A DNA stretch of 62,684 nt from Vicinamibacteria bacterium (GTDB taxonomy: Bacteria; Acidobacteriota; Vicinamibacteria; Fen-336): positions 1 through 62,684 of the forward strand of contig JAICEW010000002.1 in NCBI GenBank assembly GCA_025923995.1. Direction: 5' to 3'. The notes under the pieces are model-generated. The model saw only the letters and a list, made by a program, of their open reading frames with translations. It was not told the origin of the DNA and made no database searches. Shown one piece after another: positions 26,697 through 35,352 of the stretch. Position 1 is the stretch's first letter. Each line of letters opens with the position of its first letter. Position numbers and translations under genes: made by a program.

Positions 26697-27968
26697 GTGA
26701 ACCACGCGGTCTACTGGCAGCGGGGCGGGACTCCGTCGGTCACGCCCCTGCGCGGCCACACGCGCTGCGACGTGGTGGTCGTGGGCGGCGGCATGGCCGG
26801 CCTCACCTGCGCCGACGTCCTGGCCCAGCGAGGCGTCCGCGTCGCCCTGCTGGAGCAGCGCTACTGCGGCGCGGGAGCCAGCGGGCTGTCGTCAGGCTTC
26901 GTCACGCCGGACTCGGAGCTGGCGCTGCACGACCTGGTGACGAGCCTGGGCGAGGCTCGCGGCCGCCGGCTCTGGGACTTCGCGTCCGGCGGCGTCGCGC
27001 GCATCCGCGGGACGATCGAGCGGTTCGGCCTCGACTGCGACCACCAGGTCCAGGACTCCCTGCTCGTCGCGCGGTCGGCCCGCGCGTACCGCAAGGCCGT
27101 CGAGCCCGAGCACCGGACCCGTTCCGCGCAGGGCGAGGGCTCGACGCTGTACGACCGCGAGTCGCTTCGCCCGGTCCTGGCCGCGCGCGACGTCCACGGC
27201 GGCGTCCGCTACGGCGACACGTTCGGCATCGACTCGTACGCGTACTGCCGCGGGGTCCGCGACGCGCTCGAGCGGTGCGGCGTCTCGATCCACGAAGGGA
27301 CGCCCGCGCTGCGCCTGACCGCGGGCGGAGTCGAGACCCCGACCGGCAGCGTGGGGGCGGACGCGATCGCCGTGTTCACCGACCGCTGGCTGGCCGCTCT
27401 GGGCCTCGCGCCCGCGGCGGTCGGCGAGGTCCAGACGTTCCTGGCGGTGTCGCAGCCGCTGCGTGACGACGAGCTGCGCGCGATCTTTCCGGCCGAGCCA
27501 CTCATGGTCTGGGACACCGACCTCGTGTACCAGTACTTCCGCGCGATCGGCGGCGGGCGGCTGCTCGTCGGCGCGTCCGACCTGCGCGAGACGTACGCGC
27601 GGCGCGAGGCGCGCCGGAGCCCGCGGGTCCTGCGGCGCATGCGGCGCTACCTCGCCCGGCAGTTCCCTTCGGTGCGGATCGAGCTCGAATGGTTCTGGCC
27701 GGGCCGGCTCGGGGTGAGCAAGGACTTCCTGCCGATCCTGGGCCGGGGCGACGCGCGACGCTTCTTCGCCGGCGCGGGAGCGGGCCTGCCGTGGGCGGCC
27801 GCGCTCGGCGCCTACGTGGCCGACGCGATGACGCACGGACGGCAGGAGCTGGACCAGGAGCTCTCCCCCGCGCGTCGCTTCGCGGTCGGCTCCCGGGTCC
27901 AGCGCGTCCTGGGGAAGCCGGTGGCGTTCGCGCTGAGCCACGCGGCCGCGAAGTACTTGCGGCGGTAG
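26697..27968 (+). CDS. FAD-dependent oxidoreductase (DAO/PuuB-like)
   Basis: DVVVVGGGMAGL, GASGLSSG, WFWPG...D.LP; TATCAT 6 nt before GTG. Confidence 0.88.
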   Translation: MNHAVYWQRGGTPSVTPLRGHTRCDVVVVGGGMAGLTCADVLAQRGVRVALLEQRYCGAGASGLSSGFVTPDSELALHDLVTSLGEARGRRLWDFASGGVARIRGTIERFGLDCDHQVQDSLLVARSARAYRKAVEPEHRTRSAQGEGSTLYDRESLRPVLAARDVHGGVRYGDTFGIDSYAYCRGVRDALERCGVSIHEGTPALRLTAGGVETPTGSVGADAIAVFTDRWLAALGLAPAAVGEVQTFLAVSQPLRDDELRAIFPAEPLMVWDTDLVYQYFRAIGGGRLLVGASDLRETYARREARRSPRVLRRMRRYLARQFPSVRIELEWFWPGRLGVSKDFLPILGRGDARRFFAGAGAGLPWAAALGAYVADAMTHGRQELDQELSPARRFAVGSRVQRVLGKPVAFALSHAAAKYLRR

Positions 27969-28192
27969 ACGAAGGGGACGTCGCGGTTGTGCCACGGATT
28001 GTGTGAGGGCGGTCACGTGGTTCGCGGGTCCTGGCAAAAATGTTTGGCGTTCGACGGATGGCAGACGTATAAGAAGTGACCGCACCCTCCCTACCATTCC
28101 GGCAAGGCTGGTAGCCGCACCCCGGTCGACACGTGTCGGATCCGCATGGGGACCGGGCAAGGGCCGGCCGCAGCGGAGCCGTCGGAGGTCAC

Positions 28193-29359
28193 ATGGCGCA
28201 GAAGCACATCGTTCTCCGGAGCAACCGCTCCGCCACCGGCGACATCTTCCTGGGGCCGACGCCGACGGAGGCCCCGTCCGCCGGGATCAAGGTCGACGTC
28301 GAGGACCTCGATCCGGCGAAGGTCGGCCGGCTGACCCAGCAGCGCGACGTCGTCGCCGTCGCGCCGTCCATCCCGATGAAGCTGGTCAGCCCGTTCGACG
28401 TCACGGCGCAGCCGGCGGCCACGTCGAGCTGGGGGATCGCGGCCGTCGGGGCGGACACGACGCCGTTCACGGGAGCCGGCGTGGTGGTCTCCGTCCTCGA
28501 TACGGGAATCGACGCGGCCCACCCGGCCTTCGCGGGCGTGCAGGTGGTCGAGAAGGACTTCACCGGCGAAGGCGACGGCGACCAGCACGGCCACGGGACC
28601 CACTGCGCCGGCACCATCTTCGGGCGCGACGTCGCCGGCGCGCGCATCGGCCTGGCGCGGGGCGTCACGAAGGCGCTGATCGGCAAGGTGCTCGGGAACC
28701 AGGGCGGGTCGAGCGAGTCGATCGTGACGGCCATCCAGTGGGCCGTCGAGAACGGGGCGCACGTGATCTCGATGTCGCTCGGCATCGACTTCCCGGGCCT
28801 GGTGGCCGAGCTGCAGGCGGACGGCTTCCCGCCCGAGCTGGCGGCGAGCCGGGCCCTCGAGGGCTACCGGGCCAACGTCCAGCTCTTCGAGCGGCTGGCC
28901 GCCCTCGTCCGCGCACAGGGCGCCTTCCGGCAGGCGACGCTCACGGTCGCCGCGGCCGGCAACGAGAGCCAGCGCAACGTGGACCCGAGGTTCGTCATCG
29001 CGGTCAGCCCGCCTGCCGTCGCCGAGGGCATCGTCTCGGTCGCGGCGCTGGGCCAGAGCCCGCAGGGGCTCACGGTCGCGCCCTTCTCGAACACCGGCGC
29101 GAACGTCGCGGCACCGGGCGTCGCGATCGTCTCGGCCAAGCCGGGCGGTGGACTCCAGAGCATGAGTGGTACGAGCATGGCGACGCCGCACGTCGCGGGG
29201 CTGGCCGCGCTGTGGGCCGAGAAGATCATGGGCGTGGCGCCGCTCACCGGCCTGCAGCTGACCGCGCGCCTGGTCGCCTCCGGGACCATGACCGGCCTCG
29301 CGCCGGGCGTCGACCCGGTGGACGTCGGCGTCGGTCTGGTGAAGGCGCCCCAGGCGTGA
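28193..29359 (+). CDS. S8 (subtilase) serine protease, no signal peptide
   Basis: GGAGG SD; triad VLDTG / HGHGTHCAG / GTSMATPHVAG; oxyanion AAAGNES. Confidence 0.93.
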   Translation: MAQKHIVLRSNRSATGDIFLGPTPTEAPSAGIKVDVEDLDPAKVGRLTQQRDVVAVAPSIPMKLVSPFDVTAQPAATSSWGIAAVGADTTPFTGAGVVVSVLDTGIDAAHPAFAGVQVVEKDFTGEGDGDQHGHGTHCAGTIFGRDVAGARIGLARGVTKALIGKVLGNQGGSSESIVTAIQWAVENGAHVISMSLGIDFPGLVAELQADGFPPELAASRALEGYRANVQLFERLAALVRAQGAFRQATLTVAAAGNESQRNVDPRFVIAVSPPAVAEGIVSVAALGQSPQGLTVAPFSNTGANVAAPGVAIVSAKPGGGLQSMSGTSMATPHVAGLAALWAEKIMGVAPLTGLQLTARLVASGTMTGLAPGVDPVDVGVGLVKAPQA

Positions 29360-29374
29360 CGCGCGGAGGGACCG

Positions 29375-30151
29375 ATGAGCAATGCTGACGTCGAGAAGGC
29401 GCGAGCGTTCGTCAAGAGCCTGGCGCTGCCTGCCAGCCCGCCGGTCATGCTCGGTGCGGCGGGGTCGGAGCTCGAGTTCGACGCCGCCAGGCAGGACGCG
29501 GCCGTCGTCGGGTCGGACGTCGTCGCCTTCGTGAAGGAGGTCACGCCCGAGCAGCGCAACGACGTCGTGAACGCCACGCTGCTCGCCCAGCTGGTCGCGA
29601 ACAAGGCGCACCCCGACCCGAAGGCAATGCCCCAGGTGCTGGCCTGGTTCGACACCTACTTCGAGACGCTCTCGCAGATCGGCTTCGCCACCCAGGACCT
29701 GGGCTTCGCGGAGTACACCGCGGGCGGCGACACGTTCGAGGCCCATCAGGCCATCCTCGAAGTCGCGGCGACGCTGCTGGTGGGATCGCCGGGCGCGATC
29801 GTGATCGTGAAGAAGACCCTGGAGGCGCTGCAGAAGATGGACGCCGACAGCCCGTGGATCACGCTCTTCCATCGCGAGAGCCAGTCGGCCAACACGGCCC
29901 GCGTCCAGATGTCGGTCGTCGAGGACGACCAGAACGGTGGCTTCCTGCTGTCCACGATCGCGTTCGGCCTGGAGGCCGAGAAGAAGGTCACGCAGGTGCT
30001 GTTCTTCCGCTTCCAGAAGAACCGCCTGAAGCTGCGCCACCACATGGGCAAGGCGACCATCAGCCCCGACGTCCTGGCCGGCGTGCGCGACCAGGTGCGG
30101 CAGAAGGTGGTCGCCTTCTCGACCAGCTTCGTGGCCGGGCTCGAGGTGTAG
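29375..30151 (+). CDS. Hypothetical protein, possibly Cyt/volvatoxin-like alpha/beta pore-forming fold
   Basis: Clean 258-aa ORF with SD, 15 nt after the protease; confidence refers to the CDS, the fold is remote-motif inference only. Confidence 0.75.
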   Translation: MSNADVEKARAFVKSLALPASPPVMLGAAGSELEFDAARQDAAVVGSDVVAFVKEVTPEQRNDVVNATLLAQLVANKAHPDPKAMPQVLAWFDTYFETLSQIGFATQDLGFAEYTAGGDTFEAHQAILEVAATLLVGSPGAIVIVKKTLEALQKMDADSPWITLFHRESQSANTARVQMSVVEDDQNGGFLLSTIAFGLEAEKKVTQVLFFRFQKNRLKLRHHMGKATISPDVLAGVRDQVRQKVVAFSTSFVAGLEV

Positions 30152-30182
30152 CGGAGGGCCAGGCACGGGCTCGCGTTCGCTG

Positions 30183-30211
30183 TTTCACATGTGGCGGGCG
30201 AGGGCTAGAAT
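30183..30211 (+). promoter_or_regulatory. Putative promoter for the TIR-ATPase pair
   Basis: TTTCAC (30183-30188), 17 nt, TAGAAT (30206-30211). Confidence 0.45.
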
Positions 30212-30276
30212 CCGAGCACACGATCCGCATGGAGCGGGGCGCAGGTCGGGACTGCGTCGCTTCCGGGAGGGAACGG

Positions 30277-31431
30277 TTGGCGGCTCCGTTCTTCTTCAGC
30301 TACGCCCATAACGACGTCGACGATCAACTGAACTACTTCTACGACGAGTTGAGCAGCCGGGTCCGCAAGCTGACCGGCGTCTCGCTGAACGGGTTCAGGG
30401 ACACGGACGACATGCGCGCCGGCGAGCTCTGGGGAACCCGACTGTCCGCGGAGCTCAACTCCTGCCGGGCGCTCGTCGCGCTGTACTCGCCTTCGTACTT
30501 CAACAGCCGCATCTGCGCGCGCGAGCTGCAGGTCTTCCTCGAGCGCCGGCGCAAATACATGCTGGAGAAGACCGGGCGCCGGCCGGCCGCCATCATCCCC
30601 GTGCTCTGGCAGGTATCCGAGATCCCGAGGTCCCTGCCGGACTTCCACTACGAGGCCCCGCGGTCGGAGAGCCTCAAGGGGAAGGAAGGCGTCTGGTACG
30701 TTCGCAAGATCCGCCGCCACAACGAGTTCGACGCCATCATCCATTCGGTGGCCAAGCGCGTGAAGGAGTCCATGGCGGTGGATCTGCCCGCCCTGCCCTA
30801 CGAGCCGGTGCTCACGGGCGTCACGAGCGCATTCGAGCCACCGCCGCTCCCGCCGGCGGAGTTCGACGCCGCCGGTGCCGAGGCGGGGCCTCGGTGCGCG
30901 ACCTTCGTCTTCGCGAACGCGCCGGCGTGGACGGCGTGGCCGTTCAGCCCCGGGCACGATCCGCTTCTCCACATCGCGGCCGCGGTGGCCAAGGGCAAGG
31001 ATCTCGAGACGCACCAGCTGACGTTCGATCCGACCGACCCCCACCTGCTCGAACGCCTGAAGGCTGCACGCACCGCCAACAACCTCGTGCTGTTCTTCGT
31101 GGACGGCACCAGCCTCTCGAATCCGGTCGTCGCCCAGCGGCTGCGCGAGTACGACCGCGAGAAGTACGACTCGATGGGGACGCTGGTCGTCTGGCCTCCT
31201 GGCGCCAGGGTCGCGCGCGACGTCGTGAGCCAGGTCTTTCCCAACCTCAGCGCCAGGCAGCCTCCGCTCTTCTGGCACGAGCTCCAGGAGCCCAGGCCTT
31301 TCGCGGACGCGGTCGGCGACAGCCTCGACCGGCTGTCGAACGAGGTGCTCAGGACCGCGACCACCGAGTCGCCCGCGGCGCCAGCCGTCTACGGGACCGT
31401 CCCCATCGTCAGCAACCGGATCGCGACCTGA
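30277..31431 (+). CDS. TIR domain protein, FxsC-like
   Basis: GGGAGG then TTG; FFFSYAHND, GFRD...RAGELW, LVALYSPSYFNSRICARE (conserved Glu), IIPVLW. Confidence 0.85.
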   Translation: MAAPFFFSYAHNDVDDQLNYFYDELSSRVRKLTGVSLNGFRDTDDMRAGELWGTRLSAELNSCRALVALYSPSYFNSRICARELQVFLERRRKYMLEKTGRRPAAIIPVLWQVSEIPRSLPDFHYEAPRSESLKGKEGVWYVRKIRRHNEFDAIIHSVAKRVKESMAVDLPALPYEPVLTGVTSAFEPPPLPPAEFDAAGAEAGPRCATFVFANAPAWTAWPFSPGHDPLLHIAAAVAKGKDLETHQLTFDPTDPHLLERLKAARTANNLVLFFVDGTSLSNPVVAQRLREYDREKYDSMGTLVVWPPGARVARDVVSQVFPNLSARQPPLFWHELQEPRPFADAVGDSLDRLSNEVLRTATTESPAAPAVYGTVPIVSNRIAT

Positions 31432-33983
31432 TGGGCGGCCGGATCGTCACCTTCTACTCCTACAAGGGCGGCACGGGGCGGTCGATGGCGCTGGCCAACG
31501 TGGCGTGGGTGCTCGCCAGCAACGGCGCCCGCGTGCTGGTGGTCGACTGGGACCTCGAGGCTCCGGGCCTGCATCGCTACTTCCGTCCGTTCCTGACCGA
31601 CAAGGACCTGGTGGGCTTCGAGTCCGAGGGCGTGATCGACTTCGTGCTGGACGTGGCGCACCGCCTGGCCACGCCGAGCGCCGAGACGGCGCCTCGCGAC
31701 CAGCGCTGGATCGACGAGCACGCCGACGTGTCGCAGTGGACCAAGCGCCTGACCTGGCCCTCGGGCGAAGATGCCGTCACCGGCCTGAAGGGAACGATCG
31801 ACTTCGTCCCCGCGGGGCGCCAGGGGCCGCAGTACGCCCAGCGCGTCAACTCCTTCGACTGGGCGGGCTTCTACGAGAAGTACAACGGGGGCGCGTTCAT
31901 GGACGCCTTGCGCCGCAGCATGGAGCGCTACGACTGGGTGCTCATCGACAGCCGCACGGGCGTGAGCGACACCTCGGGCATCTGCACGGTGCATTTCCCC
32001 GACACGCTCGTCGTCTGCTTCACGCTCAACTACCAGAACATCGACGGCGGGGCCGCGGTCGCGGCGTCGGCGCGCGCGCAGCGCAAGGATCGCGAGCTGC
32101 GCATCCTGCCGCTGCCGACGCGCCTGGACGGGAACGAGGAGAAGTCGCTCAAGGCGATGATGGCCCACGCGCGCCGGAGGTTCGACGGCCTGCTGGACTC
32201 GCGCGTCGATCCCGAGAAGTACTGGCGCGAGATGGGCGTGCCCTACTTCTCGCGCTACGCCTACGCGGAGAAGCTGGCGCCCTTCGAGGACCAGGTCAAC
32301 GTCTCCACGTCCACCCTGCCGGCGATGGAGCGCCTCGTCTGGTACCTCTCCGACGGCCTCATGAGCTCCCTGCGGCCGCTGCCGGAGGCGCATCGCCTTT
32401 CGGCCCTGAGCGAATACGAGCAGGTGGACGACGCCTCGCGCGAAGCCGCGATGCCCGGGGCGGTCGCTTCCGCGAGAGGCGCAGGAGGATTCCTCCGCGA
32501 ACTCCGCATCAACCTGGTCCGCAGCTGGTATGCGTCCAGCGCCGTCGCGCGCGGGCTGTTCTCGCTGGCGGTCCCGCTGACGTTCGTCGCCTTCTACCTG
32601 GGCGGTGCGTTCAGCCGCAGCCCACCTTCGACGTCGACGCTCGTCAGCAAGCTCATCGCGGAAGCCAACACGGCGCGGGCACAGGAAAGGCTCGAGCGGT
32701 CGGCCCTCCTCGTGGCCGAGGCGGCGGCACGTCTCGATCCTGCGACCGTGGTGAGCGAGTCGAGCGAGTCCGGCAAGGAGGTGTTCACCGCGTTGCGGGC
32801 TCTGCAACCCTTCCGGCTGGCGTCGTCCGACTCATCGAGCGCACCTTCGCTCCCCGTCGCCACGCGCGCCCCCCGCTACGGGACGCGCGGCGTCGCCTTC
32901 AGCCCGGACGGACGGTTCCTGGCGAGCACCGGGCCCGCGCAGCCGGCCAACCTCTTCCGCTTTCCCCTCGGGAACACCACGGGGCCCGCGATCGAGTCCG
33001 GCTATTCCGCCATCGCCTTCAGCCCCGACTCGCGCTACCTGGCCTCCGGCGGACGCAACGGGAGCCTCATCGTCGTCGACCTGTCGACCGGCGCGCGCGT
33101 CTGGCAATGGGAGAACCCCGACCCTGATTCCGCCTGGGTCACGGCCATCGCCTTCAGCCCCGATGGCAACGTCGTCGCGGCGGGAACCGATACCGGGCAG
33201 GTGCTGGTCGCGCGCGTCGATCCCTGGCGGGAGCTCACTTCGTTCCGCGAGCCCGGCGTGACCGCGCTCGCGTTCAGCCCCGACTCGAAGTGGCTCGCGA
33301 CGGGCGGAAAGGAGGGCGCGCATCTGTGGTCCATCGAGAAGCGGGCCCTCGATCGGGAGCTCGTCACGTCGGAAGGCGCGGTGGTGACCATCGTCTTCGC
33401 CGGCAACGACCTGGTCATCCGCACCGAGGGGCGGACGCAGTCCTTCCGCGCGACGGGCGGCGACTCGTCCGCGGTCACGGGCCCGATTCCGACCACTGCG
33501 TATGCCCTCGCGATCACCCCCGACGCCGCCACCGTGGCCTACGCGGACGGGCCGACCGTGCATGTGCAGTCCGTGACGCCCGCCGAGCCGATGGTCGAGC
33601 GGCGTTCGGCACGCTTCGAGTTCCCCGACGTCACCAGCATGGCCTTCAGCCCCGGCGGCGACATGCTCGCCTGCGGGGGCGTGAGCGGGGAGCTTCGCGT
33701 CTGGCGGCTCGACGGCGGCCCCTCCGCGTCGCCCCTCCCCTCGATCCGCTTCCCGTCCGTGAACGCGATCTCGATGAGCGCGGACCTGAGGTTCGTCGCC
33801 GTGGCGGCTCGCGAAGGCACCTACCTCGCGTTCCTGCCGACCGACAGCTCCACGGCCCTCTCCGCCACGCAGGCGCGGAGCCTCGCCTGCAGCCAGGCCG
33901 GCGGTGCACGCCTGACCCAGGAGGACTGGGCGCGCCACTTCGGCTCGGAACCGCTCCGCGATTCCTGCGCCGGCGGCTTCTAG
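31431..33983 (+). CDS. MinD/ParA-type (KGG motif) ATPase + TM helix + WD40 propeller
   Basis: TGATG coupling; TFYSYKGGTGRSMALAN, VDWDLEAPGL, LIDSRTG; hydrophobic FSLAVPLTFVAFYLGG; repeated AFSP(D/G) WD40 blades. Confidence 0.88.
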   Translation: MGGRIVTFYSYKGGTGRSMALANVAWVLASNGARVLVVDWDLEAPGLHRYFRPFLTDKDLVGFESEGVIDFVLDVAHRLATPSAETAPRDQRWIDEHADVSQWTKRLTWPSGEDAVTGLKGTIDFVPAGRQGPQYAQRVNSFDWAGFYEKYNGGAFMDALRRSMERYDWVLIDSRTGVSDTSGICTVHFPDTLVVCFTLNYQNIDGGAAVAASARAQRKDRELRILPLPTRLDGNEEKSLKAMMAHARRRFDGLLDSRVDPEKYWREMGVPYFSRYAYAEKLAPFEDQVNVSTSTLPAMERLVWYLSDGLMSSLRPLPEAHRLSALSEYEQVDDASREAAMPGAVASARGAGGFLRELRINLVRSWYASSAVARGLFSLAVPLTFVAFYLGGAFSRSPPSTSTLVSKLIAEANTARAQERLERSALLVAEAAARLDPATVVSESSESGKEVFTALRALQPFRLASSDSSSAPSLPVATRAPRYGTRGVAFSPDGRFLASTGPAQPANLFRFPLGNTTGPAIESGYSAIAFSPDSRYLASGGRNGSLIVVDLSTGARVWQWENPDPDSAWVTAIAFSPDGNVVAAGTDTGQVLVARVDPWRELTSFREPGVTALAFSPDSKWLATGGKEGAHLWSIEKRALDRELVTSEGAVVTIVFAGNDLVIRTEGRTQSFRATGGDSSAVTGPIPTTAYALAITPDAATVAYADGPTVHVQSVTPAEPMVERRSARFEFPDVTSMAFSPGGDMLACGGVSGELRVWRLDGGPSASPLPSIRFPSVNAISMSADLRFVAVAAREGTYLAFLPTDSSTALSATQARSLACSQAGGARLTQEDWARHFGSEPLRDSCAGGF

Positions 33984-34015
33984 GCCGCACGCAGAGCCGG
34001 GAGTGACAAACGACT

Positions 34016-34030
34016 GGCGGCGGGAGTTGA
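34016..34030. repeat. 15-bp duplicate of the tmRNA T-arm region (att-like scar)
   Basis: GGCGGCGGGAGTTGA at 34016-34030 is identical to 34078-34092. Confidence 0.75.
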
Positions 34031-34070
34031 CGCCAATGAGCGACGTCTCGACGCTCGCGCGAAGCGCGGG

Positions 34071-34431
34071 TGGTGGAGGCGGCGGGAGTTGAACCCGCGT
34101 CCGGAAAATCGCCGGCGAGAGAGACTACAGGCTTAGTCCGACCTGGAGTTTCGCCGTCGCCGTGAAGGCCGGACAAAACCGGCGGCGGCTAGTCCGATTG
34201 ATCTCGCCCTCCGCCTACGGACCGAAGGCTCGGGGCCAGCCCACCTTGATGACGCTCTGTCCAACCGCCGTGGGCGGGCAGCCGGCAGAGCGGGTTACCT
34301 AACGGTTAGTTAGGCAGCCAGCGCCAAGTTATCGTTGGCAGCTATGGTTTTTCCACCTGATTTACGAGCAGGTAGACACGCTCGGCCTGCCTCGCTCGGG
34401 GTCAGTTTCCCGTCGAAACCGTGACGCCCCC
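34071..34431 (-). ncRNA. ssrA: tmRNA
   Basis: 5' GGGGGCG, 3' ...CGCCTCCACCA; tag reading frame ANDNLALAA* at 34339-34310. Confidence 0.97.
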
Positions 34432-34443
34432 GTCGAAACACCT

Positions 34444-35352
34444 TCATTGTACCACCCGCGCGGTCGACAGGCCGAGCGCCCGCAGGTGCTTCTCGCCCCC
34501 GGGCGCGTTCAGCTTCCAGTAGGCCAGGCGCGTCGATCCCAGCAGGACGGCCTCTTCGCCCGACGTCGAGGTCCGCCGCACCAGCCGATACGGCGGATCG
34601 GCCTCGAACTGCAGCGTCGTGGTCGGCCCTCCCTCCTGGGCCACCGTCCACGTGGTCGCCCGGAAGCGTCCCGCGGGCGTCGTCACGGTCTCGACCGCGG
34701 CCGCGCGCGCGATCTCGGCGCGTCCCCACGCCAGCGGCTTGTGCCCGAGCCGCGACGACAGCAGGCTGGGGAGGAACGGCACGCTCTTCTTCTGGCCCGG
34801 CTTCAGGAGCTCGCCCTGCCACCCGCGCAGGAGGATGGGCAGCACGTCCTCGAACACGCCGTCCGCCGGCATCGAAAGGTCGTCGGAGCCGTCCGCCTCG
34901 CCGTCGAAGTAGCTGTGGAAGATCCCCGGCACGCGCCCGCCGCGCGGCGTGAGATGGTGGTAGACGAGGCCGCACCACTCCTGGCTCGAGAAGCTCACCT
35001 TCGCGATCGGCCAGCCCGCGGCCACGCGCGCGAACACGGACGTCATCACGTCGTAGTGGTAGATGCCCGTCTGGAAGTCGCGCACCTCGTTCAGCTTCAT
35101 CACCGGGTACACGTCCGTCTTCGGGTGCTTCCCCGGATCGGCCTTCACGCGCAGCGAGTCGCTGAAGTCCTCCGTCACGAAGATCAGCACGGCCGTCCCG
35201 TCGCGCACCGCGCCGTAGCGCGGCTGCTTGAGGCGATAGCCGCTCAGCTCCGCCTGGCCGTCCCCCCAGTGCTTCCAGAAATCGGGCGGACCCTGGGCGG
35301 ACACGGTGCGGGACAACAGCGACACGAGCAGGACGGCGAGACGAGTGCGCAT
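34444..35352 (-). CDS. Conserved hypothetical exported protein
   Basis: Signal peptide; FWKHWGDGQAELSGY, LIFVTEDF, KVSFSSQEWCG, HSYFDGEAD. Confidence 0.8.
   Translation of the reverse strand: MRTRLAVLLVSLLSRTVSAQGPPDFWKHWGDGQAELSGYRLKQPRYGAVRDGTAVLIFVTEDFSDSLRVKADPGKHPKTDVYPVMKLNEVRDFQTGIYHYDVMTSVFARVAAGWPIAKVSFSSQEWCGLVYHHLTPRGGRVPGIFHSYFDGEADGSDDLSMPADGVFEDVLPILLRGWQGELLKPGQKKSVPFLPSLLSSRLGHKPLAWGRAEIARAAAVETVTTPAGRFRATTWTVAQEGGPTTTLQFEADPPYRLVRRTSTSGEEAVLLGSTRLAYWKLNAPGGEKHLRALGLSTARVVQ

Follow-up and report, generated by a model that had tools for sequence, protein, structure and literature searches.

The X258 gene and the subtilase upstream of it

The DNA analysed here, 62,684 nt of a Vicinamibacteria genome (contig JAICEW010000002.1; referred to as the window), contains at 29375-30151 on the forward strand an unannotated open reading frame (ORF) for a 258-aa protein, here called X258, which lies immediately downstream of a gene for an S8 subtilase. 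A first reading of the letters alone (the original prediction) had proposed that the protein of this ORF, whose translation matches the one quoted there, is coupled to a protease and may have the pore-forming fold of the Cyt toxins and volvatoxin. We examine X258 from its gene and fold to its family and genomic neighbours, and propose a role for it.

The window is 72% G+C and many overlapping ORFs are open in it; the G+C content at the three codon positions was therefore used for choosing the real genes. By this measure X258 is a real coding gene (0.67/0.40/0.96 at positions 1/2/3), with the sequence GGAGG located 5 nt upstream of its ATG; these two features and the large family of homologues described below confirm the ORF of the original prediction as a genuine protein gene. 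An antisense ORF that overlaps X258 (28091-30166) is without the codon-position signature of a real gene and was dismissed as a shadow. The N-terminus of X258 holds no hydrophobic stretch, which bears out the earlier claim that the protein lacks a signal peptide.

The subtilase occupies the frame 28133/28193-29359, in which the ATG at 28193 is preceded by GGAGG; a longer ORF (28003-29388) gives no matches and is not the subtilase frame. The triad D103/H134/S328 is intact and, together with N257, invariant in an alignment with three other S8 proteins linked to X258 genes. With this triad, the Pfam match listed in Table 1 and a stop only 15 nt before X258, the adjacent subtilase named in the original prediction is confirmed. 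The 388 residues consist of a prodomain and a catalytic domain, and neither a signal peptide nor a sensor domain was found in them; the best NCBIfam resemblance, far below cut-off, is to the mycosins of type VII secretion. The gene order subtilase-X258 is kept in relatives at 68-88% identity. The subtilase is presumed to be the activating protease of the pair, and in the mechanism proposed below it would be co-transcribed with X258.

Table 1. Features at and around the X258 gene in the window, in order of position.
Feature	Position	Strand	Evidence or detail
S8 subtilase, 388 aa, with I9-like N-terminal prodomain and catalytic domain	28193..29359	+	PF00082 E 1e-39; G+C at third codon position 0.95
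15-nt intergenic spacer with GGAGG ribosome-binding site of X258	29360..29374	+	read from sequence
Cyt-fold protein X258, 258 aa, isoelectric point 5.4, 0 Cys, no signal peptide, no transmembrane segment	29375..30151	+	
N-terminal helix of X258, residues 3-15, conserved ARxFVxxxxLP	29381..29419	+	block pLDDT (predicted local distance difference test) 93-97
Pro-rich linker of X258, residues 16-40, its least conserved and least confident part	29420..29494	+	block pLDDT 62
Cyt-like alpha/beta core of X258, residues 41-229, with the PWITLFxRES and TQVLFF motifs	29495..30061	+	Foldseek, HMMER
Long C-terminal helix of X258, residues 231-254	30065..30136	+	
Sigma-70-like promoter match (TTCACA-16-TAGAAT), within the 125 nt that separate X258 from the TIR gene	30184..30211	+	consensus match only
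FxsC-type TIR gene	30277..31431	+	TIR_2 E 5e-10; NCBIfam FxsC_Nterm E 3.5e-32, below cut-off
Start of the TIR gene	TTG 30277 with ribosome-binding site GGGAGGGA, or in-frame ATG 30229	+	sequence read
KGGVGR-motif ParA-like ATPase fused to WD40 repeats	31431..33983	+	NF047398 E 4e-43, above cut-off; WD40 E 1e-26
Transfer-messenger RNA (tmRNA) gene ssrA, tag ANDNLALAA	34071..34431	-	ARAGORN

Fold of X258 and its kinship to Cyt toxins

An AlphaFold2 model of X258, built on 96 family sequences at 24-72% identity, has a pLDDT of 88.3 and a predicted TM-score (pTM) of 0.88. It begins with a helix (residues 3-15) and an unstructured linker, which are followed by a beta-hairpin (41-52), a helix hairpin (58-78 and 85-101), a strand (104-116), a further helix hairpin (123-134 and 139-154), a helix (160-169), three strands (174-184, 190-201 and 218-229) and a C-terminal helix (231-254). 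When the model was compared with the PDB by Foldseek, ranks 1-13 were taken exclusively by chains of Cyt1Aa (6T1A, 6T14, 6T1C, 3RON), Cyt2Aa (1CBY), Cyt2Ba (2RCI), Evf (2W3Y) and volvatoxin A2 (1PP0, 1VCY, 1PP6), with E values from 7e-7 to 4e-3, probabilities of 0.96-1.00 and TM-scores of 0.31-0.52. The first match after rank 13 has a probability of 0.35 and the remainder is noise; Dickeya CytC appears at rank 48. The Cyt/volvatoxin fold, called by eye in the original prediction, is thus upheld at the fold level by the two programs, AlphaFold and Foldseek, that it had named for the purpose.

The sequence comparison is independent of the structure search and agrees with it. A HMMER profile of the 96 members, searched against the 177,635 distinct sequences of the PDB, has Cyt1Aa as its sole significant match (E 7.4e-4), and no match other than Cyt1Aa chains was obtained at E < 0.1. 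This match, which suggests a weak homology, is marginal; it aligns profile positions 98-214 with Cyt1Aa residues 92-214 over 117 aligned positions, pairing "tQVLFFkf" with "EQVLFFTI" and "PWItlF.rEs" with "AWI-FWGKET". The alignment reproduces the Cyt2-like motif series that had earlier been read by eye (W-I, E-S/T, QN..G and QVLFF) in a C-terminal string now identified as X258 residues 159-213, and the two helices quoted with it fall within the predicted helices 58-78 and 85-101. The order of elements in the model also agrees with the published description of Cyt1Aa, in which the alphaA/alphaB and alphaC/alphaD hairpins flank a central sheet on either face (PMC7052140). Identity between X258 and the Cyt proteins is 10-18%. 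Judged by predicted structure and profile alignment, X258 is a homologue with the Cyt fold that stands outside the curated Pfam family; we call it a remote one because the TM-scores are moderate and no member reaches the Pfam model for Cyt toxins.

Other folds were considered and rejected. A gasdermin-like fold finds no support in the Foldseek list, as no gasdermin is among the top 50 matches of the model, and Bet v1/START-like or OXA-like folds appear there with low probability and TM-scores of 0.14-0.2. In a separate comparison with BFVD, some giant-virus proteins are weak to moderate Cyt-like structural matches to the X258 model (Marseillevirus A0A481YQZ0, probability 1.0 and TMt 0.39; M1I283 and M1HBT0).

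The known maturation of Cyt1Aa invites a comparison with the ends of X258. Cyt1Aa loses propeptides of 37 N-terminal and 7 C-terminal residues, the C-terminal propeptide helix being alphaF, and this removal and the opening of the alphaC/alphaD hairpin come before membrane insertion (PMC7052140). By analogy with the 37-residue N-terminal propeptide (PMC7052140), the conserved N-terminal helix of X258 is a candidate latch or propeptide, while its C-terminal helix would sit at the position of alphaF; the C-terminus itself is uniform across the family, ending in [DE]-[IVL]-COOH or LPDL. The linker that joins the N-terminal helix to the core (residues ~16-40) is a candidate protease cleavage region. 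Across the 96 sequences it is 19-41 residues long, has the lowest information content and is rich in Pro (12.5% versus 3.7% overall). The helix hairpin 123-154 is hydrophobic (Kyte-Doolittle peak of 2.09 in a 19-residue window, at residue 136) and the long strands are amphipathic (hydrophobic moment muH 0.52-0.53), and these properties of the sequence are indirect hints of membrane binding or permeabilisation. The Cyt fold keeps this hairpin packed on the sheet, which is consistent with a latent form of X258, as are the amphipathic strands, the uniform C-terminus and the combination of a conserved N-terminal helix with a variable linker. The adjacent proteases and the variability of the linker after the conserved helix suggest activation by removal of a terminal propeptide.

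A large family of mobile genes

As a single query, X258 matches nothing in NCBIfam, PADLOC or the PDB sequences, nor in Pfam at a threshold as loose as E <= 10. A word-indexed search recovered 629 homologues at E <= 1e-3, nearly all of ~259 aa and carrying at most the name "hypothetical protein", and an exhaustive profile search brought the family to at least 1,436 representative clusters at 50% identity. The hosts belong to NC10, Nitrospirota, Chloroflexota, Acidobacteriota, Gemmatimonadota, Planctomycetota, Bacteroidota, Actinomycetota and Desulfobacterales, and include many Proteobacteria such as Bradyrhizobium and Pseudomonas. X258 is single-copy in its own genome and was not detected in any of 40 related genomes, of which 24 come from the host's family and 16 from its order; homologues are carried by 46 plasmids, most of them conjugative replicons of Sinorhizobium. 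The gene is accessory and moves horizontally, given that it was not found in the 40 relatives, lies next to a tmRNA gene, is plasmid-borne elsewhere and has a tree in which the host phyla are scrambled. A role as a phage lysis or counter-defence gene was rejected, since searches of 50,697 phage genomes and of 2.9 million viral contigs gave no match to X258.

One remote lineage within the family is carried by Sinorhizobium meliloti GR4 plasmid pRmeGR4b (L073) and ~40 other Sinorhizobium plasmids, at ~25% identity and covering residues 40-258. Its members sit among insertion sequence (IS) elements with no protease nearby, and may have a different role or be remnants.

Proteases beside X258

For a survey of neighbourhoods, the ORFs around 66 genome loci of the family were clustered, representatives were classed with Pfam and the classes were extended by profile searches; the counts that follow are loci with a given gene within ~6 kb of X258. 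X258 has no universal partner and is surrounded by a rotating set of genes: TIR (20 loci), TPR-S sensor repeats, mostly on proteases (20), patatin (18), CHAT (15), trypsin-like proteases (15), an unannotated protein of ~630 aa named cl2long (12), GH108 lysozyme (11), S8 (7), LCAT-type lipase (7), caspase C14 (6) and MBL-fold proteins (5). With cl2long (a probable gluzincin) and cl40 (weakly caspase-like) included in the tally, the nearest protease lies at <=300 nt in 23 loci, within 1.5 kb in 39, 3 kb in 46 and 6 kb in 48; the distances cluster beside X258. Among the closest relatives a protease (S8, caspase or CHAT) is directly adjacent in seven of the seven that were looked up. The coupling to a protease that the original prediction had read from the window therefore holds, and is broader than the S8 family.

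The loci of these relatives illustrate the variety. P0004 (88% identity) has the S8 gene and X258 with no further gene, on two contigs. P0007 and P0008 have S8, X258 and CHAT, to which P0007 adds patatin and TPR-S; in P0015 X258 is followed by CHAT; in P0050 and P0062 the order is patatin, caspase, X258 and then STAND/TPR proteins; and in P0108 an insertion between thyA/folA and hom comprises a caspase, X258 and a STAND protein of 1,402 aa. At the P0108 locus (L071) the caspase resembles the NCBIfam 'caspase, EACC1-associated type' (E 3e-28, below cut-off). STAND NTPases occur near X258 in three loci (L069-L071), and an FGE-sulfatase domain is among the sensor-type domains of relatives. Many relatives have a sensor (TPR-S, STAND or FGE-sulfatase) beside or fused to the protease; the S8 protein of the window has none. 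Fusions of X258 itself are of four kinds: caspase-X258, X258-caspase, X258-TIR-TPR-S and nSTAND1-TIR-X258, the last (P0155) with X258 at the C-terminus.

Four mechanistic protease families partner X258, namely S8, trypsin-like, caspase/CHAT and a probable M4-like metalloprotease. S8 is the partner only in the subclade of the window, its place being taken elsewhere by one of the other classes. In a maximum-likelihood tree of 65 X258 sequences, the window protein falls in an S8-linked clade (support 100/94), which is sister to a CHAT-linked pair, with a caspase-linked clade next. Partner class has to change 25 times on this tree (the possible minimum being 6, and the mean with shuffled partners 40.8), which indicates that partners are co-inherited over short distances, yet have been swapped repeatedly.

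Three side observations concern the proteases. The cl2long proteins (for example L004:8830-10728 (+)), which have no Pfam, NCBIfam or PADLOC match, show an invariant HExxH and HE-x3-D in an alignment of nine loci, and the sole PDB matches of their profile are the M4 proteases 1NPC and 1BQB, both of them weak (E 0.14 and 0.65) and aligned exactly at these catalytic motifs. To judge from these motifs, cl2long is probably a new gluzincin protease family, encoded beside X258, patatin and MBL-fold genes. MBL-fold proteins stand beside X258 and this probable metalloprotease at L020:6363-7994, L032:6388-7974 and L028:10735-12174; proteins of this class are reportedly protease-activated nucleases, so that one protease may serve two latent effectors. 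Finally, in Bradyrhizobium denitrificans LMG 8443 (L017:7968-10796) an X258 domain is fused to a C-terminal extension of 690 aa without a Pfam match, and the fusion is followed by a double protease (S8 and trypsin-like, 952 aa). That this is a Cyt-amidase fusion could not be confirmed, the extension having no similarity to the amidase of the Sinorhizobium fredii locus described below.

Proposed role of X258

We consider it a little more probable than its negation that X258 is a latent membrane-disrupting effector, licensed by proteolysis, in mobile bacterial conflict systems. In what we regard, with the same slight confidence, as the best explanation of the loci, X258 is the constant 'executioner' module of a family of such systems, which are probably anti-phage or abortive-infection systems. 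The context of conflict genes counts for this role (the TPR-S, TIR and patatin loci tallied above, STAND proteins, the fusions, and an ABC-three-component (ABC-3C) system), as does the caspase of EACC1-associated type, in whose company X258 would fill a slot equivalent to that of EACC1.

In the proposed mechanism, X258 would be made as a soluble and self-inhibited protein, in which the helix layers (including the hydrophobic hairpin 123-154), the N-terminal helix and the linker cover a membrane-active sheet. A triggered partner protease would then cut it: here the S8 subtilase, elsewhere a caspase, CHAT, trypsin-like or probable metalloprotease, often carrying or adjoining TPR-S, STAND or WD40 sensors. 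The likeliest site of the cut would be the Pro-rich linker or one of the termini, and, as in Cyt1Aa, cleavage would free membrane-active surfaces. The processed protein would bind and disrupt the inner membrane of its own cell, leading to cell death, and in many loci the breach would admit co-encoded lysozymes, amidases and phospholipases without signal peptides to the envelope.

Several points weigh against this proposal. Cleavage, the cleavage site, membrane activity and the role in defence are all steps that we infer. The S8 protein of the window carries no sensor domain; 18 of the 66 loci have no recognised protease within 6 kb (six of these have a flank of < 3 kb), and in several loci the immediate neighbour of X258 is a TIR, patatin or lipase gene and not a protease gene. 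The linker shows no motif specific to any protease class. The TM-scores to the Cyt structures are just 0.31-0.52, with high root-mean-square deviations, and the Pfam Cyt model PF01338 (Bac_thur_toxin) is reached by 0 of the 96 members, being absent from the 25 families listed for them in a scan at E <= 1. Moreover, Evf is a Cyt-fold protein but not a pore former, so the fold is no guarantee of cytolysis.

The constancy of X258 amid varying enzymatic partners could also be explained if X258 were a non-lytic regulator, decoy or sensor, which restrains the proteases or TIR enzymes or reports a phage cue; it would be a bait substrate or allosteric partner, and toxicity would come from the enzymatic partners alone. 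The position of X258 C-terminal to nSTAND1-TIR in P0155, the usual place of sensor repeats, fits such a role, and so does the sensor-less S8 protein of the window. However, it is not likely that one conserved protein inhibits proteases with four different catalytic mechanisms, the known relatives of the fold are membrane-active, and known protease-effector pairs likewise show one effector with many protease classes. We therefore regard a regulatory X258 as improbable and keep to the protease-licensed effector.

Lytic-enzyme neighbours and the proposed cellular target

Like X258, many of the lytic enzymes encoded beside it lack a signal peptide. The GH108 lysozymes of the 11 loci start directly at the catalytic domain without a signal peptide, as do three of the four Amidase_2 proteins. 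Cytoplasmic wall hydrolases need a membrane lesion for their action, and these signal-less enzymes thereby lend circumstantial support to a membrane-breaching role of X258. Patatin is directly adjacent to X258 in ~7 loci.

The same neighbours can be accounted for in another way, to which we give a minor but appreciable chance: X258 may be a membrane-targeting cofactor and not a protease substrate. It would bind or perturb the inner membrane or a lipid and thereby recruit, activate or admit the co-encoded patatin, LCAT/Lipase_3/GDSL lipases, GH108 lysozymes and amidases, in a holin-like or 'direct lytic factor' role, and the proteases would regulate the lytic enzymes rather than X258. The recurrence of patatin (adjacent or within 6 kb), lipases and signal-less lysozymes and amidases is in its favour, as are the loci that have TIR or lipase partners and no detected protease; Evf, moreover, binds lipid. 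The closest relatives, however, always have a directly adjacent protease, which is sometimes the sole partner; the fusions are to caspase and TIR, with none to lipases; and the EACC1-type caspase context suggests that X258 is a substrate. These points leave proteolytic licensing of X258 as the explanation that we prefer.

A stretch of the Sinorhizobium fredii NXT3 conjugative plasmid pSfreNXT3a (L072, NZ_CP024308.1 16504-31262) brings several of these genes together. It contains, in order, an ABC-3C system, four hypothetical genes and the X258 homologue WP_104840064.1 ("hypothetical protein"), followed by three genes, whose products are a GDSL-lipase/Amidase_3/Peptidase_M15 protein of 825 aa without a signal peptide, a trypsin-like protease of 902 aa and a DUF4231 protein. 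The stretch is defence-island-like; its host, a rhizobium, can be cultured, and the locus is well suited to experiments.

The target of the effector deserves a further comment, as all characterised Cyt-fold proteins act on eukaryotic cells. X258 could accordingly be an exported Cyt-type toxin against protists, invertebrates or competitors, with the S8 protease as its maturation enzyme and with lysis or a non-classical pathway for its release, as for the crystal Cyt toxins; subtilases often mature toxins, and the faint resemblance of the window S8 to type VII secretion mycosins points the same way. Against export, both X258 and the S8 protein are without signal peptides and no secretion-system genes are nearby, the surroundings are of an intracellular immune type (STAND, TIR, TPR-S, EACC1-type caspase, ABC-3C), and the hosts, Nitrospira, NC10 and Desulfobacterales among them, live freely in soil and groundwater. 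We hold an exported toxin to be very unlikely, and an intracellular effector acting on its own cell is retained in what follows.

The TIR-ParA pair and the tmRNA gene

Downstream of X258, the TIR gene overlaps the ParA-WD40 gene at TGATG. The two match the 'TIR-ParA' dyads described in bioRxiv 10.64898/2026.10.19.760177, and the dyad of the window stands without any FxsAB peptide genes. The promoter match in the gap between X258 and the TIR gene is the only one in 27900-34500 (6.6 kb; 0.3 expected by chance) and suggests that the TIR-ParA pair is a separate transcription unit; no RNA structure signal was detected in the gap (z-score 0.04). The S8-X258 pair recurs without TIR-ParA in the relatives P0004, P0007 and P0008, and the notion that it is an obligate part of a TIR-ParA cassette is not supported. 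Given this recurrence and the promoter-like site in between, the two pairs were treated as adjacent modules of one island. It is possible that a TIR signal activates the sensor-less S8 protease, or that ParA-WD40 supplies the sensing.

The four-gene cassette stops 88 nt short of the tmRNA gene, the 3' end of which faces it. The tmRNA 3' end is a classic insertion site of islands; no direct repeat of it was found flanking the cassette, and no integrase gene was seen in the cassette.

Comparison with known systems

By its architecture, X258 is closest to the Cyt superfamily (Cyt1Aa, Cyt2Aa and Cyt2Ba of Bacillus thuringiensis, volvatoxin A2 of Volvariella, Evf of Erwinia and CytC of Dickeya), with which it shares a single alpha/beta domain of ~250 residues and an order of elements that leads from an N-terminal extension and strands through a helix hairpin, a strand and another, hydrophobic helix hairpin to three long strands and a C-terminal helix. 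The activation of Cyt1Aa by removal of terminal propeptides fits the protease partner of X258. In contrast to the Cyt toxins, X258 carries a further conserved helix at its N-terminus, joined to a Pro-rich linker, and its C-terminal helix is longer. It occurs with a dedicated protease gene in cytoplasmic conflict neighbourhoods of diverse environmental bacteria, and is most probably neither a crystal toxin nor a toxin secreted against eukaryotes. It differs from Evf in having no conserved Cys, and hence no palmitoylation of the Evf type. To our knowledge, the Cyt fold was previously seen only in toxins that target insects, nematodes and mammalian cells, and a literature search turned up no Cyt-fold protein described as part of a bacterial conflict or defence system. 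What would be new here is an effector family among protease-gated defence modules and, with it, a new biological role for a known toxin fold.

Phage holin-endolysin cassettes offer a second parallel, since they too place a membrane-lesion protein (putative in the case of X258) beside signal-less muramidases or amidases. Unlike holins, X258 has no transmembrane segments, was not found in the phage genomes and viral contigs searched, and is linked to proteases and immune-type sensors instead of phage late genes. We also entertain, as a speculation that is more doubtful than the role proposed above, that the Cyt fold is primarily a prokaryotic immune executioner: X258 and its homologues would be the protease-licensed 'holin' of a modular self-lysis kit, breaching the membrane of their own cell and setting free co-encoded lysozymes, amidases and phospholipases that lack signal peptides, and the insecticidal Cyt delta-endotoxins, fungal volvatoxin and Evf would be outward-turned offshoots of this immune family. 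If true, the Cyt story would parallel that of the gasdermins, from bacteria to eukaryotes.

A central logic of bacterial immunity, with parallels in eukaryotes, is emerging in the protease-gated pore formers (gasdermins, EACC1 and Pepco), and the X258 family would add to these a fourth, structurally unrelated executioner and give the Cyt fold a cell-autonomous intracellular role. Like bacterial gasdermins (Johnson et al. 2022; Wein et al., PMC10312443), EACC1 and Pepco, X258 is one effector family served by several protease classes, and the loci of all are mobile with a patchy distribution. For EACC1, pore formation upon activation by a protease has been shown by experiment (Evans et al., bioRxiv 10.1101/2025.11.14.688446), and X258 is not one of the ten protease-associated families that the same study surveyed. 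That X258 is itself an EACC1 or Pepco protein was rejected: its 258 aa compare with ~115-117 aa for these two (EACC1 is ~13 kDa and has a transmembrane helix; Pepco is 117 aa), and no model matched X258. Its fold is unrelated to those of gasdermins, EACC1 and Pepco, cleavage and pore formation are in its case proposed, and it pairs additionally with patatin, TIR and wall hydrolases. By linking these enzymes with four protease families, X258 suggests a modular self-lysis programme, for which compact systems exist in the two-gene S8-X258 pair, the three-gene caspase-X258-STAND locus and the S. fredii NXT3 plasmid locus. The Cyt cytolysins are the nearest kin of X258 by descent, and its working logic, as proposed here, is most like that of the gasdermin, EACC1 and Pepco systems.

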